Part shown: one piece after another, positions 47,000-53,599 of the stretch
Layout of the letters: each line of letters starts with the position of its first letter
Position numbering within the stretch: position 1 is the stretch's first letter
Origin: an uncultured delta proteobacterium
Lineage (GTDB): Bacteria; Myxococcota; Myxococcia; Myxococcales; Anaeromyxobacteraceae
Direction of reading: 5' to 3'
Assembly: GCA_963766715.1 (NCBI GenBank)
Contig: CAVYBH010000012.1
Coordinates: 320,001-384,000, forward strand
DNA: 64,000 bases
Position numbers and translations under genes: made by a program
The notes under the pieces: model-generated
Seen by the model: the letters and a program-made list of their open reading frames with translations, nothing else
What the model was told of the DNA's origin: nothing
The model's database searches: none

Positions 47000-48140
47000 T
47001 CAGGCCGTGACCCACTCCCGCAGGACCCGGTCGATCTCCTCCTCGGAGAGCTGGCCGCGGTCGGCCATGGCCTTGATGCGGGCGGTGATGTCGCGGAGCT
47101 CTCCCTCGCCGAACTTGAGCCCCATCTCCCGCGCCCGGTAGGCCACGGCGTGCTTGCCGGTGAGGCGGCTGCCCACGATGAGCTGGCGGGCCATCCCCAC
47201 CGCCTCGGGCGGGATGATCTCGTAGCTGCCGGTGTTCGCGAGCATGGCCTTCAGGTGCATGCCCGCCTTGTGGGAGTAGGCGGTGGCGCCGGTGAGCGGG
47301 TTGTTGAACGGGATCTCGACCCCGGTGACCCGGGCCACGAGCCGCTCCAGCTCCCGCAGCTGCCCGAGCCGGTACCGGCCGGAGACGTCCTGCGGATCGA
47401 GGCTGTACATGCGGGCCACGAAGCCGCCCAGCGGCGTGATCCCCACCCGCTCCCCGATGCCCGAGGACGGAGACGTCGACGTGGGTGGCCCCGGCCGCCA
47501 CCGCCTCCCAGGCGTTCGCGACCGCGCATCCCGTGTCGTCGTGTCCGTGGAAGCCGATGTCGCACCGGACCGTGCGGCGGATCTCGCGGAAGAGCGCGAA
47601 GACCTGGCGGGGCGTGGCGATGCCGACGGTGTCGGCCGCGCCGACGCGGTGGACGCCCAGGCCCTCGGCGGCCCGGTAGACCGCCATCAGGTCGGCCTCC
47701 TCGCTCCGGAAGGCGTCCTCCGCCGAGAACCGGGTCTCGAGCCCCGCCGACAGCGCGAGCTCGATGGGCGGGCCCATGGCGTCGATGATCTGCTGGATGC
47801 TCCGGCCGTGGGAGGCCTCCCGGAGGATGCGGCTGGTCGCGAAGAGCAGCCCGATGCCCTGCACGCCGGTGTCGATGGCGGCGCGCACGTCGTCCACCAC
47901 GCAGCGGGCGTGGGTGATGACCTTCGCCGACAGGCCGAGCTTCACGATCCGCTCGGCGTCCCGCTGCGACTCGGGCGACGCGGCAGGCGAGGTGAGCTCG
48001 ATGTAGTCCACGCCGAAGGCGTCGAGCGATCGCGCGATGGCGATCTTGTCCTCGGTCCGGAAGTTGCCCCGGGCGAACTGCTCGCCCTCCCGGAGGGTGG
48101 AGTCGATGATCCGCCAGGGTGTGCCGGAGGGCGCGCTCAT
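47000..48140 (-). CDS. Homocitrate synthase, Thermus/fungal type; frameshift ~47460
   Basis: [77 protein letters not shown], ends LREWVTA; end-to-end resemblance to T. thermophilus HCS as recalled. Confidence 0.85.
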
Positions 48141-48148
48141 TCCATCCC

Positions 48149-51100
48149 CTACTGCGGCACCGCCGAGGCGGCGACCAGGTCGAGAACCAGCCCGCCGGAG
48201 GCCGGGTCGATCCGGAATCCGAAGCGGGAGAGCACCTCCGGCTGGAACCATCCGGTCTCGAGGACCCGCGTCCCCCGGGCGCGTTGCCGCCGGGAGAGCT
48301 CCCGCATGATGCCGTCGGCGATGCCGAGGCCGCGGTGCTTCCGGCTCACCACGATCTTCTCCATGTGGGTCCGCTCCGGCGACACCTGCCGGTAGAAGAC
48401 GCCGCCGATGACCGCGTCGTTCCCGTCGACGGCGATGAGGTGGCGGTGCTCGGGCTCGAAGGTGACCTCCAGGGCGGACTCCTGGAAGAGCTGGAGCAGC
48501 CGGGCCACCTCTCGCGGGGACCGGGCGGCCCGGACGGAGTAGCGTTCGCCCTTCGAGTCGGTGAGGCCGACCACCACCTCGGCGGTGATGTGGTCGCCGC
48601 GCTCCAGCGAGATGAGCGAGGTCTCGTCGCCGGGCCGGAGGTGGCGGAAGGTCATCCGGGCGAGGAAGTAGTCCTCGCGTGCGTCGGGCCGGACGGCCTC
48701 CCGGAGCGACGCCAGCTGGTCGCGCAGGTCGAGGCCGCGGTAGGGCAGGGAGCGGGCCCGGGCCATGAGCCGGTCGAGCGCCGCCGCCAGCGGTTCCCGG
48801 GCGTCGGCGAAGACCGTGCGCCGGAAGAAGCGGATCCGGGTGTCCGGCCACTCCCGCTCGGTCTCGCCGAGCTTGTAGGTGGTCCAGAGCTCGCCCAGCA
48901 TGGTGCCCTGGGCCTCCTGGGTCGCGTTGGGGTTGAGCGCCAGCCAGCGACGGAAGCGCTCGGACGCGAAGTGGACCGGCCGCGACGTGAAGCCGGTCGC
49001 GTCGACCTTCGCCAGGAAGGCCAGCGCCGCCTCGGCGCGGGGCCCGGGCTGGAGCGAGGAGAGGACCGTCCGCGCGCGGTCGAGCCCGAGCGCCTCGACC
49101 ACCGCCGAGAACCGGAGCGTCGGGATCAGGCCGCCCACCAGGTCCGGGTACTGGGCCTCGGTGGGCTGGACGAAGGCCTTCTCGAAGCGGTCGAGGACGT
49201 CGTCGAGCTGCTCGACCGAGCCGCGGTCGGAGATGGACACGAGCCGCGCGCCGGTCTGGTAGTCGTGCGAGGGCACGATGAAGGCCGCCGGGGAGGGATC
49301 GCGGAGCGCCACGCGGCGCCCGGTCCGGTCCCAGAAGCCCACGTGGGCGGCGAGTCCGGTCCAGACCAGGAAGGGCCACTGGTTGCGGAGCCGGCGCCCC
49401 TCGCCCTGCTGGAGCAGGCGGGCCAGCTGCTGCTCGACGTTCTCCCCGGGGATGAACTCCTCGGTGTAGATGCCGAAGTCGGGGTGGTAGCTGCCGAAGG
49501 CCTCCACGAGCGGGGGCGGGGCGCCGGAGGAGAGCAGCCACATCACCTCGTCGCGGAGCTCGGCGGGCGGCATGGTCTCGGCGTGGTTCACCGCGAAGTC
49601 GTAGGTCTCGCGCGAGCGGGTGGTGATCGACATCCGGTAGACCGACTTCCCGAGGCGCCGCCCGAGGAGCGTGATCACCGCGCCCCCGGGAGGGATGTCG
49701 GCGAGCGAGATGAGGGCGCCGTTGCCCAGCACGAAGGCGGAGCTGCGCACGAAGGTCGACTCGGTGATGGCCCGGAGCACCAGGTCGCCGGTGCGCGGGG
49801 GCATGGGGCCGTCGAAACGGACCACGTCACGCCAGGTGTATTCCTCCCCGGTGGCCGGATCGATGGCCAGGCGGAGGTTGGGTCCCAGCCAGTGCTGGAA
49901 CCCGCGGCGGAGCCGGTCGTACTCCTCGCCGGCGCGCGCCGACAGGATGGCGTCCGGGTGGAAGGTGAGGCGCGCGAGCGGCACCCGCACGCGCGCGTAC
50001 CAGGCCGGATGCGAGAGCGAGTAGGCGACGGCGAGTCGCATGGCGCCCGCCAGCAGCCGCCGCTCGGAGGCCTCCTGATCGGGGTCGAGGGCGCGGGGCG
50101 CCTGCAGGGCGTCGAGCAGCGCGTCGACCTGGGCCTCGGAGAGCCCCTTCTCGCCGAAGGAGACGAGGTCCTCCTCCCGCAGCGCCTGCGGTCCGAGCCG
50201 GTCGAGGAAGAGCCGGAGGGTGTCGACGGTGCGTCCGGGCTCCTCGAAGGGGAGCAGGCTGCGGAAGGCGCGGCGGCGGACCTCCTCCTCGGGAGAGTCG
50301 GCGCCACGCCGCAGGAGCCCCCGGGCCAGCGGCGCCAGCTCGCGACGGCCGGTCTGGAGGACCCGCTCCAGGTGGGAGAGGGCGCGGCGCGCCTCCGGAC
50401 GCTCGGCGCGGAGGAGCTCGCCGGACGCGTGGACGGACTCGACGGACGGCTCGTCCCGCCCGGCCGCCTCGACCAGGGCCGGGAGCCGCTCGGGATCGGG
50501 CGATTCCCAGACGCGCGAATCGAGGCGGACCTCGCCGGCGCCCTTGGGGCGCCGCACGGCGAGGGTGCGGAACGCCTCCTCGCCGAGGAACCGCCGCAGC
50601 CCCTCGTTGCCGAGCCAGAGGGTGGGGTGGGCCAGGATCGAGCCCAGGTCGACGTGGCCGCCCTCGGGCCGGTAGGCGAGGTCGCCCACGCGGAGCGAGC
50701 CCGGCGCGCGCGGGTCGACGCCGATGCGGAGGCTGGCCCCGCCGGCGCGGAGCTCCCCGCCCCGGACCACCACGTCCTCGATGAGCACGCCGATCTCGCG
50801 CAGCACCCAGTTCGGGATCCGCAGCCCGATGCCGTCGACCGACAGGGAGAGGGCGCGGTGCTGGTACATCCCGTCGACGAGCGACTGCCAGTTCTTCTCC
50901 ACGACGTCGCGCTTGAAGGTGCCCTTGTGGGTCAGCTCCCCGTGCTCGGCGTCGAGGGCCCGATCGAGGATCCGGAAGGCGACCACCCGCTCGAAGGGGG
51001 CGAGGAAGCGGTTGGCCGACGCGACCAGGGAGGAGACCAGGTGCTGCATCTCCTCGGGGCTGCGCTGCCGGAGCTCCGGACGCCCCTCGTAGTTCGGCCA

Positions 51101-52804: not shown

Positions 52805-52842
52805 GGCAGGGACACTCTACGATCGACACGGGCCTCCCACAC

Positions 52843-53599
52843 ATGGTTCATTCGGCCCCGTGGCCCCCCCCGGATCTCCGAGCCCTTCGAGGCACACAGC
52901 TACGCGGTGGACGCCTTCGGGCTGCTCTCCGCCCCGGCCCTGTCGGGGTGGCTCCAGGAGGCGGCGGGGCGCCACGCCGAGCTGCTCGGCGTGGGGGTGG
53001 AAGCCCTTCAGGAGAGGGGACTCACCTGGGTGCTCGCCCGCCAGGCCGTCGAGGTGGATCGGCCGGTCCTCCTGGGTGAGCGGGCCGAGGTCGCGACCTG
53101 GCCCAGCGGCGCCGACCGGCTGAGCGCCCTCCGGGACTTCGAGGTGCGGGTCGCCGGCGAGGTCCGGGTCCGGGCCGTCACGCAGTGGATCGTGCTCGAC
53201 CTCGCCACCCGCAAGCCGGTTCGTCCCGGGTCCGTGCTTCCGATCGACCTGATCGAGGAGACGCCCCACGTGCTCCCGCTCCCGGCCGGCCGGCCGCCCC
53301 CGCCGGAGCCGGCCGCGATCGACCGGGTCTTCTCCACGCGCTACCGGGACATCGACCGCAACCTCCACGTCACCAACGCCAGCTACGTCGAGTGGGCCTG
53401 CGAGGCCTTGCCGGAGGCGACCTGGCGCACCGCGCGCCTCCGTTCCTTCGAGGCCTACTTCATCGCCGAGTGCCTCCACGGGAGCGAGGTCCGATCCCTC
53501 TCGGCGCCGGCCGGCCCCGGGACCCACGTCCACTCGGTGAGGCGCGAGGGGGACGGGAAGGAGCTGGCCCGGCTGCGCACCACCTGGGTGGATCGCTAG
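52843..53599 (+). CDS. Acyl-ACP thioesterase (FatA/B-like double hot-dog); frameshift in C-run ~52865
   Basis: LQEAAGRHA..LG, WVL.R, TWP, RDF, W...D..TRKP, RYRDIDRNLHVTNASYVEW..E. Confidence 0.9.

Follow-up and report, generated by a model that had tools for sequence, protein, structure and literature searches.

The DNA analysed here is a window of 64,000 nucleotides (the whole stretch, positions 320001-384000 of contig 12) from the genome assembly of an uncultured delta proteobacterium of the family Anaeromyxobacteraceae. The assembly comprises 4.2 Mb in 18 contigs and is 84.6% complete, the G+C content of the window is 70-76%, and the nearest named relatives of the encoded proteins are found in Anaeromyxobacter and the Anaeromyxobacteraceae. 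Our subject is the gene for a 1551-residue protein, here called BIG, that joins an AMP-forming ligase (ANL) domain, a kinase-like domain and a GNAT acyltransferase domain in one polypeptide, together with the homocitrate synthase (HCS) gene that follows it directly on the same strand. Members of the BIG family recur beside genes for acetyl-CoA-condensing synthases, and a link between BIG and such synthases is supported by the evidence below. The features of the locus are as follows:

47000..48140, minus strand: Thermus-type HCS gene (HMGL-like and HCS_D2 domains), with an extra base at 47459-47463
48141..48148, minus strand: 8-nt gap separating the stop codon of BIG from the start codon of HCS, TAG GGGATGGA ATG
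48149..52804, minus strand: BIG, 1551-residue ANL ligase/kinase-like/GNAT protein (open reading frame and translation; stop codon at 48149-48151)
48152..48619, minus strand: GNAT acyltransferase domain of BIG, residues 1396-1551 (PF00583, 27.2 bits versus a cut-off of 20.7)
48620..49882, minus strand: predicted kinase-like (pseudokinase) domain and helical region of BIG, residues 975-1395 (model m0bff7a72a3e1)
49883..50854, minus strand: predicted beta-rich linker (residues 651-770) and helical repeat region (771-974) of BIG, matching no known family (AlphaFold2 model)
50855..52453, minus strand: ANL domain of BIG, residues 118-650 (PF00501 and PF23562)
52844..53599, plus strand: acyl-acyl carrier protein (acyl-ACP) thioesterase gene (PF01643, 65.9 bits versus a cut-off of 23.7; PF20791, 49.6 bits versus a cut-off of 21)

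The BIG reading frame, of which the window's genome holds one full-length copy, is borne out by the listing of open reading frames, by its translation and by a G+C content at third codon positions (GC3) of 0.96. The initial annotation had assigned ligase and GNAT domains to it, and Pfam agrees on both. AMP-binding (PF00501) covers residues 118-488 (E 9.4e-66, 222.6 bits versus a cut-off of 29.9) and the C-terminal subdomain AMP-binding_C_3 (PF23562) covers residues 533-649 (37.8 bits versus 20.8). The core motifs of the ANL superfamily are A3 (T/S-S-G-T/S-T-G-x-P-K-G), A5 (G-Y/F-G-x-T-E), A7 (T-G-D), A8 (R-x-K) and the lysine of A10, and BIG has these as well, which places it in that superfamily. 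Conservation was gauged in 57 full-length family members with mutual identities of 27-59%, a position being called conserved when at least 88% of the members agree. Motifs A3, A4, A5, A7, A8 and A10 are kept in 54-57 of the 57, the A10 lysine (K627) in 56, and the ligase contains 110 conserved positions versus 3 in the kinase-like part. This pattern points to a ligase under catalytic constraint, predicted to be a working AMP-forming acid-CoA ligase, and BIG appears to be foremost such an enzyme, carrying a large regulatory appendage. The solved chains closest to the ligase are oxalate-CoA ligase 5ie0 (E 1.2e-27), malonyl-CoA synthetase and FadD5, all at about 90-100 bits. Among the 25 NCBIfam families listed none reached its cut-off, so that BIG falls in no named ANL substrate subfamily there; the top match was FadD11 at 205.3 bits versus a cut-off of 950.

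At the other end of the protein, the Acetyltransf_1 (PF00583) match spans residues 1443-1514, a profile search found Gcn5 at E 2.8e-5, and the modelled fold gives VIA-align matches of Z 13-15.5 over about 120-138 residues to proteins that include Gcn5, PCAF, Rv0998, NatA/Naa and the GNAT of Streptomyces lividans Pat, whose structure (4u5y) shows it in complex with an Acs C-terminal domain. BIG is thus a GNAT by the Pfam cut-off and by fold; its acetyl-CoA loop reads R-G-L-G-I-A, and by these comparisons the domain resembles protein lysine acetyltransferases. The region between ligase and GNAT has no such relatives at the level of sequence: Pfam at E values up to 10 returned no family for residues 651-1101 or 1002-1451, a PDB profile search of the middle region gave one irrelevant match (E 0.27), and the ESM Atlas returned for it only clusters named 'hypothetical protein' with scores below 0.9. 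An AlphaFold2 model of residues 651-1551 built with 19 family sequences (predicted local distance difference test score, pLDDT, 80.9) places in order a beta-rich piece, a helical repeat, a mixed alpha/beta domain, a second helical region and the GNAT fold. In it strands are predicted at 651-720 and helices at about 770-970, with pLDDT mostly 85-94; 10 positions are conserved in the beta-rich linker and 2 in the helical repeat.

Fold searches with this 901-residue model were swamped by GNAT matches (a match to PI3K-gamma with a probability of 0.54 was weak and was not used), and it was the folding of the 421-residue part 975-1395 alone (pLDDT 83.2; predicted template modelling score, pTM, 0.74) that revealed a kinase fold. 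Foldseek gave 55 matches at E <= 0.001 for this second model, those listed all being kinases, and in VIA-align all 50 of the 50 matches listed have the kinase fold (Z 9.7-11.9). The best are Bud32 (4ww5; Z 11.9, root-mean-square deviation 4.3, 213 residues aligned), YihE (Z 11.2) and RIO2 (Z 11.1), followed by RIO1, aminoglycoside and choline kinases and eukaryotic-type kinases. Within residues 975-1220 only G1104, W1158 and D1181 are conserved, and across the family alignment we found neither a conserved strand-3 lysine nor a conserved HRD-type catalytic-loop aspartate. D1181 may be the equivalent of the DFG aspartate; residue equivalence to kinases was judged by the order of secondary structures and not by residue-level superposition. 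A sequence-profile comparison (hhalign) with a genuine Pkinase domain from another locus of our collection (L062) gave a probability of 0.25%, the aligned stretch being only strand 4, strand 5 and the hinge. The bilobal kinase fold is thus present in a prediction made from 19 related sequences and the catalytic residues of kinases are not conserved, and the word 'pseudokinase', which the initial annotation had used, is a fair label for the modelled domain when taken to mean a predicted kinase-like fold that lacks conserved kinase residues.

The HCS gene starts at the ATG at 48140, 8 nt past the BIG stop codon, exactly where it had been placed initially. In a census of 401 sampled Myxococcota genomes, the window's family is represented by 67 genomes besides the window's own, and 65 of these contain the non-ligase part of BIG; a second family has it in 1 of 9 genomes, and the remaining 324 gave no match. 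LysS-type HCS scored above the TIGR02146 cut-off of 413.55 bits in 63 of the 401, nearly the same genomes as those with BIG. HCS lies directly 3' of BIG and on the same strand at 68 of 74 matches to the BIG C-terminal part, that is in 65 of 67 BIG-bearing genomes that cover 11 genera of the window's family. A closer look at 20 fetched Anaeromyxobacteraceae loci, again from 11 genera, gave stop-to-start spacers of -4 to 21 nt in 20/20 (taking the start codon nearest the stop), and the window's wider flank (ilvD, DUF2721, PAD agmatine deiminase) recurs in only 4 of the 20. In two Anaeromyxobacteraceae genera citrate synthase, BIG and HCS stand in a row on one strand. From the spacing alone we infer that BIG and HCS are probably co-transcribed; a consensus scan of 46800-53700 gave no promoter-like or terminator-like site, and public RNA runs contained only 5-6% of the sampled words.

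In G269, the one BIG-bearing genome of the second family (a family of the window's own order), HCS has decayed: what is left of it 3' of BIG (L056:975-1314) contains an in-frame stop and a frameshift and is cut short after about 110 residues. The same genome holds an intact LysS-type HCS on another contig (C2:3002957-3003991) and, about 40 kb from it, a stray BIG C-terminal fragment (query residues 711-893 of 901, C2:3043507-3044055). In one further genome (G165) the HCS beside BIG (L049:12403-12847) shifts frame near its 3' end, appearing as two overlapping tblastn pieces, with a TIGR02146 score of 409.6 bits over positions 1-300; this frame change could be an assembly error or a real lesion. 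The proposed linkage of BIG to HCS therefore holds well beyond very close relatives (65/67 genomes, 11 genera) but does not extend to other phyla (0/160 loci, below), and the pairing is lineage-specific.

The HCS domains attributed to the gene from ATG 48140 are present, but in the window its frame is broken by an extra G. Residues 1-230 read from 48140 to 47450, and the final 148 residues follow in another frame at 47446..47000, ending REWVTA; the break is one extra G in the G run at 47460-47462 when compared with relatives that read VLGIGERVG there. Because of this frameshift the window's HCS scores against TIGR02146 as two pieces of 273.8 and 149.2 bits, whereas intact orthologues 3' of BIG (63/401 genomes) score 434-461 bits (447.6 in G060) and so belong to the LysS type by that family's cut-off. 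Contigs from 4/4 independent public environmental DNA runs that cover 46900-48400 omit one base at 47459-47463, and they list no other insertion or deletion in these 1501 bases. Two further genes are split in the same manner: ilvD (dihydroxy-acid dehydratase, window 45081-46978, plus strand) changes frame at a G run that is GGG where the protein motif predicts GGGG, and lysA elsewhere in the window's genome (C8:389223-390441) is likewise divided between frames. The assembly carries systematic single-base homopolymer indels, so that any 'pseudogene' in this genome needs checking. Because the base is missing in all four runs and ilvD and lysA are split too, the HCS break is probably an assembly error, and we treat the gene as intact in nature.

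What, then, is this HCS for? It aligns end to end with the HCS of Thermus thermophilus (3a9i; E 4.8e-147, 373 residues, same length), and the residues aligned with R12, H72, H292 and Y303 of the Thermus enzyme are kept in 16/16 HCS sequences; R12 and H72 we take to be substrate-site residues of Thermus HCS. This end-to-end match and the retention of those four residues disfavour the suggestion in the initial annotation that the enzyme makes an alkyl-homocitrate-type metabolite. The position aligned with Thermus Tyr297 is M, L or T in all 16 sequences; in the Thermus enzyme that tyrosine stabilises bound lysine, according to PMC8276798. The carrier protein LysW (TIGR01206) was found in 0/5 genomes, three of them 99-100% complete, and was detected in 4 controls including Thermus, while the diaminopimelate decarboxylase gene lysA is present in 5/5; a Thermus-type lysine pathway is therefore not evident, the LysW-carrier context of the alpha-aminoadipate pathway is lacking in these five, and we rejected a role for HCS as an enzyme of lysine synthesis. 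We also rejected HCS as a NifV substitute, since of 5 genomes with the BIG-HCS pair only 3 have nifH above its cut-off, and as a sole citrate synthase of the Re type, since each of 5 genomes examined has one ordinary citrate synthase elsewhere. The metabolic context examined (lysine, nitrogenase, citrate synthase) gives no explanation for HCS, and we found no literature on homocitrate synthase in Anaeromyxobacter. The isopropylmalate/homocitrate synthase family has another representative in the window, at 30629-31666 on the plus strand; its TIGR02146 score of 178.6 bits is far under the cut-off, and it is probably a LeuA- or CimA-type enzyme.

The BIG family reaches far beyond the Myxococcota. 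A profile of the kinase-like region found 322 representatives at E <= 0.001 (these being clusters at 50% identity), and 56 of the best 150 representatives are full length (about 1470-1710 residues). Among distant members both ANL Pfam families are present in 22/22 and the GNAT family, at E <= 1e-5, in 18/22. A quick tree gives two clades of 36 and 54 rows, and the family occurs in at least six phyla. Loci were sought with clade-specific alignments, the family-wide mixed alignment being too diverse. From 475 confirmed stretches in species genomes we kept 80, which come from Acidobacteriota, Gemmatimonadota, Calditrichota, Ignavibacteria/Bacteroidota, KSB1, Methylomirabilota and one 'Deltaproteobacteria' genome, and 80 metagenome loci represent the second clade, making 160 loci in all.

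When the open reading frames flanking the 80 species-genome loci were clustered without supervision, citrate synthase ranked first. It lies within 1 kb of BIG in 26/80 of these loci, in three gene orders, and in 3/3 genomes checked the citrate synthase beside BIG is the genome's only PF00285 match. In the second clade an isocitrate dehydrogenase gene stands directly 3' on the same strand in 21/80 loci, an aconitase gene 5' on the opposite strand in 19/80, and citrate synthase within 4 kb in 16/80. After near-duplicates were removed and 3 kb was required on both sides, citrate synthase, aconitase or isocitrate dehydrogenase lay within 3 kb in 19/47 and 17/35, or 36 of 82 loci; on a tree of BIG the loci with such citric-acid-cycle neighbours are spread over about seven distinct clades, and their gene orders differ. 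Acetate kinase (4 loci), malonyl-CoA decarboxylase (3 loci), glycogen genes and multihaem cytochromes also recur beside BIG, and no transporter, amine-forming or tailoring gene was recurrent among the neighbours surveyed. With regard to the Gemmatimonadota, one 3.2-Mb chromosome (G403, which holds locus L119) gave no PF00285 match, yet has a BIG homologue, and the other chromosomes checked have exactly one citrate synthase, beside BIG. The broader intuition behind the initial annotation, that BIG is tied to an acyl-CoA-condensing synthase, survives in this way, with citrate synthase recurring as a neighbour elsewhere together with aconitase and isocitrate dehydrogenase; BIG's repeated partners are enzymes that join acetyl-CoA to a 2-oxo dicarboxylic acid or act on what results. 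Its three-gene route finds no support.

The divergent gene on the far side of BIG is a thioesterase by both hot-dog domains (Acyl-ACP_TE and Acyl-ACP_TE_C), each above its cut-off. The 38-bp gap that had been described between the two genes assumed a start at the ATG at 52843, which is out of frame with the thioesterase domains; the frame of the domains extends from 52844. In two relatives a GTG some 20 nt farther along is in frame, whereas its equivalent in the window precedes a run of eight C and does not share the frame of the domains. The start codon, and with it the real gap of about 40-60 nt, is uncertain. A thioesterase homologue is present in 61/71 genomes of the window's family. It adjoins BIG divergently in 9/9 genomes of the window's genus with both positions known, and only there. 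Outside that genus, two genomes, both of one genus, have it close to the distal end of HCS; the complete genomes G060, G166, G130 and G134, from other genera, carry it on the chromosome of BIG but at a distance of more than 1 Mb; and seven further genomes place it and BIG on different contigs. As its own weak point the initial annotation had named the case that BIG homologues are not linked to HCS or thioesterase genes outside very close relatives, and in part this is what we found: neither gene occurs in any of the 160 BIG-family loci outside Myxococcota. The thioesterase is a genus-level neighbour, a local bystander outside the conserved pair, and its role as a partner of BIG is refuted by its lack of linkage in other genera and its absence from the loci of other phyla.

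Several other genes of the surroundings may be recorded here. An agmatine deiminase-type gene (PAD_porph, E 1.1e-94) followed directly by a CN_hydrolase gene (E 1.8e-60) occupies window positions 41878-43800 on the minus strand and looks like an agmatine-to-putrescine pair, and a DUF2721 gene lies at 43843-44325. In the stretch 3' of the thioesterase (53599-57725) the minus strand carries a Cupin_5 (DUF985) gene and a multihaem NapC/NirT-type cytochrome gene (56316-57725), and there is also a phosphoglucose isomerase-like frame with only a partial match to the profile of that enzyme.

Four known systems invite comparison. Pat, PatZ (YfiQ) and SlPatA are, like BIG, large multidomain proteins that unite a CoA-synthetase-type domain with a GNAT, they share with it a metabolic context around acetyl-CoA, and the GNAT fold matches that of the Streptomyces Pat (4u5y). 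BIG differs in having an AMP-forming ANL domain with every catalytic motif and a kinase-like domain that is absent from Pat, and by Pfam and profile search we found no sequence similarity between the two beyond the GNAT domain. AceK, an active isocitrate dehydrogenase kinase/phosphatase that has neither a ligase nor a GNAT domain, is similar in being a kinase-fold regulator associated with genes of a citric-acid-cycle branch point, isocitrate dehydrogenase lying 3' of BIG in one clade; the kinase-like domain of BIG differs in lacking conserved catalytic residues, and AceK was absent among the fold matches listed by Foldseek and VIA-align. The HCS resembles T. thermophilus LysS (3a9i, 2ztj) in its end-to-end match, its length and its equivalents of R12, H72, H292 and Y303, but it is coupled to BIG and not to lysine genes, has no LysW in the five genomes, and carries M, L or T at the Tyr297 position.

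The AcsA-AcuA(-AcuB) system of Bacillus is like the BIG that we propose below in combining an ANL ligase, a GNAT that acetylates the A10 lysine, and a sensor. There the three are separate proteins, AcsA and AcuA forming a complex (PMC11255334 and PMC13121692), and in BIG all lie on one polypeptide; the candidate sensor is a pseudokinase in BIG and a CBS/ACT protein in Bacillus, the BIG ligase lies outside the acetyl-CoA synthetase subfamily, and self-acetylation of BIG is a proposal. The definition of type I and type II Pat calls for an NDP-forming (nucleoside diphosphate-forming) synthetase-type domain (PMC8556138), which BIG fails, Pfam and NCBIfam showing only AMP-forming ligase families in it. 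Of the five domain types that the same review distinguishes among bacterial GNAT acetyltransferases, none includes an AMP-forming ligase, and its text nowhere uses the term 'AMP-binding'. For a ligase-GNAT or pseudokinase fusion our literature search found only general acetylation reviews, and as far as that search reached, the initial statement that no characterised system has this layout stands.

We tentatively favour, as a possible reading that falls short of an even chance, that BIG represents a deep uncharacterised family of proteins of about 1500-1700 residues that works at the acetyl-CoA entry of central metabolism as a self-regulating acyl-CoA-forming enzyme, supplying or gating a condensation. 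Its substrate, acylation target, sensing role and metabolic coupling we infer as follows. With ATP and CoA, the ligase would convert a free acid into an acyl-CoA, the likeliest product being acetyl-CoA or another short or dicarboxylic acyl-CoA. The GNAT would read the acyl-CoA level and acylate a lysine. Pat and AcuA acylate acetyl-CoA synthetase, and the most economical target in BIG would be the ligase's own A10 lysine, K627, giving product feedback. The pseudokinase, probably a nucleotide- or metabolite-binding scaffold and allosteric sensor, may tune this response to the energy state of the cell. The acyl-CoA would then be consumed by the condensing enzyme encoded next to BIG, which would be citrate synthase in Gemmatimonadota, Ignavibacteria and some Acidobacteriota, and in Anaeromyxobacteraceae the Thermus-type HCS, presumably translationally coupled to BIG.

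A number of observations weigh against this picture. Acetate is not indicated as the substrate, because the nearest ligase families are long-chain or dicarboxylate ones and lie far below their cut-offs. The GNAT motif A is moderately conserved (G1494 in 50/57 members, R1491 in 36/57), and the ligase, with its putative acylation site K627, lies outside both structural models. The family is patchy (7 of 151 sampled Gemmatimonadota), and because of this an accessory rather than a core role fits. In 46 of the 82 fully flanked loci none of the three citric-acid-cycle genes (citrate synthase, aconitase, isocitrate dehydrogenase) is present within 3 kb; the raw neighbour counts overstate independence because neighbour states follow the clades, of which there are about seven; the recurrence of glycogen genes and multihaem cytochromes may be lineage synteny; and in the window's own genome citrate synthase sits on another contig than BIG.

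Among other explanations the chief rival makes BIG mainly a Pat-like lysine acyltransferase that targets its neighbours (HCS here; citrate synthase, aconitase and isocitrate dehydrogenase elsewhere), with the ligase making the donor on site and the pseudokinase docking the target or sensing nucleotides, so that the whole would be an AceK-like switch of flux that works by acylation. Gcn5, PCAF, Rv0998 and the S. lividans Pat GNAT are among the best GNAT matches, BIG stands repeatedly beside the first three enzymes of the citric acid cycle and beside HCS, and a CoA-synthetase-type domain is likewise part of the known bacterial acetyltransferases of types I and II (PMC8556138). That domain of Pat is catalytically dead according to the same review, whereas in BIG no region is better conserved than the ligase, which retains every catalytic motif, so that ligase catalysis is central and not auxiliary; adjacency to the putative targets is moreover seen in under half of the loci. 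We regard this rival as somewhat unlikely. If the neighbours were instead inherited gene order within one family in the case of HCS, and coincidental lineage synteny in the case of the citric-acid-cycle genes, there would be no coupling to explain. The HCS linkage is indeed confined to one family plus one decayed copy, neighbour states track clades, and most loci are without such neighbours. But the pair persists over 11 genera while its surroundings change (the window's flank recurs in 4/20 loci), with spacers of only -4 to 21 nt, BIG and LysS-type HCS co-occur almost perfectly over the 401 genomes, and analogous acetyl-CoA-condensing enzymes of unrelated folds recur by BIG in several phyla in differing orders, and we think an absence of coupling distinctly unlikely.

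Two alternatives remain. The ligase might activate homocitrate or citrate, and the GNAT move it to an amine, giving an N-acyl amino acid or a chelator. The nearest solved ligases, oxalate-CoA ligase and malonyl-CoA synthetase, are dicarboxylate ligases, HCS has no evident lysine role (LysW 0/5, lysA 5/5) and is not tied to nitrogenase (nifH 3/5), and the Tyr297-equivalent position is M, L or T in 16/16. Those ligase matches are however weak (about 100 bits), transporter, amine-forming and tailoring genes do not recur beside BIG, and the adjacent citrate synthase is the sole one in 3/3 genomes checked, which argues for housekeeping flux rather than a dedicated pathway; this use of the product is very unlikely in our estimation. 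The model of the initial annotation, in which thioesterase, BIG and HCS form one fatty-acid route or a fatty-acid-sensing switch, draws on the adjacency of the three genes in all 9 genomes of the window's genus with known positions and on the names of the best NCBIfam matches to BIG, which are fatty-acid ligases such as FadD11. The score of 205 bits is far under the cut-off of 950, however, HCS keeps the 2-oxoglutarate-site residues of Thermus HCS, and the thioesterase gene shows no linkage to BIG in other genera, four complete genomes having the two more than 1 Mb apart, and is found in 0/160 loci elsewhere. The three-gene acyl route is not supported, and we give this model almost no credence.

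Returning to the favoured view of BIG as a self-regulating acyl-CoA-forming enzyme, a further proposal is that it is an acylation-based counterpart of AceK that would activate an acid, sense nucleotides through its dead kinase fold, and acylate itself as well as citrate synthase, isocitrate dehydrogenase or HCS, so that in Anaeromyxobacteraceae it would control HCS. The family would then be a hitherto unrecognised type of switch in central metabolism, spread over many little-studied phyla; we consider this unlikely. If the link to the condensing enzymes holds, the condensation of acetyl-CoA with a 2-oxo acid would be the first functional anchor for a family with hundreds of diverged members. 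If true, BIG would also add a sixth architecture to the bacterial GNAT regulators, one whose CoA-ligase domain, unlike that of Pat, is catalytically alive. For the organisms themselves, the Anaeromyxobacteraceae universally keep a Thermus-type HCS alongside the diaminopimelate route, with no LysW pathway and irrespective of nitrogenase, and since Anaeromyxobacter dehalogenans is cultured, the BIG-HCS pair is open to direct study.

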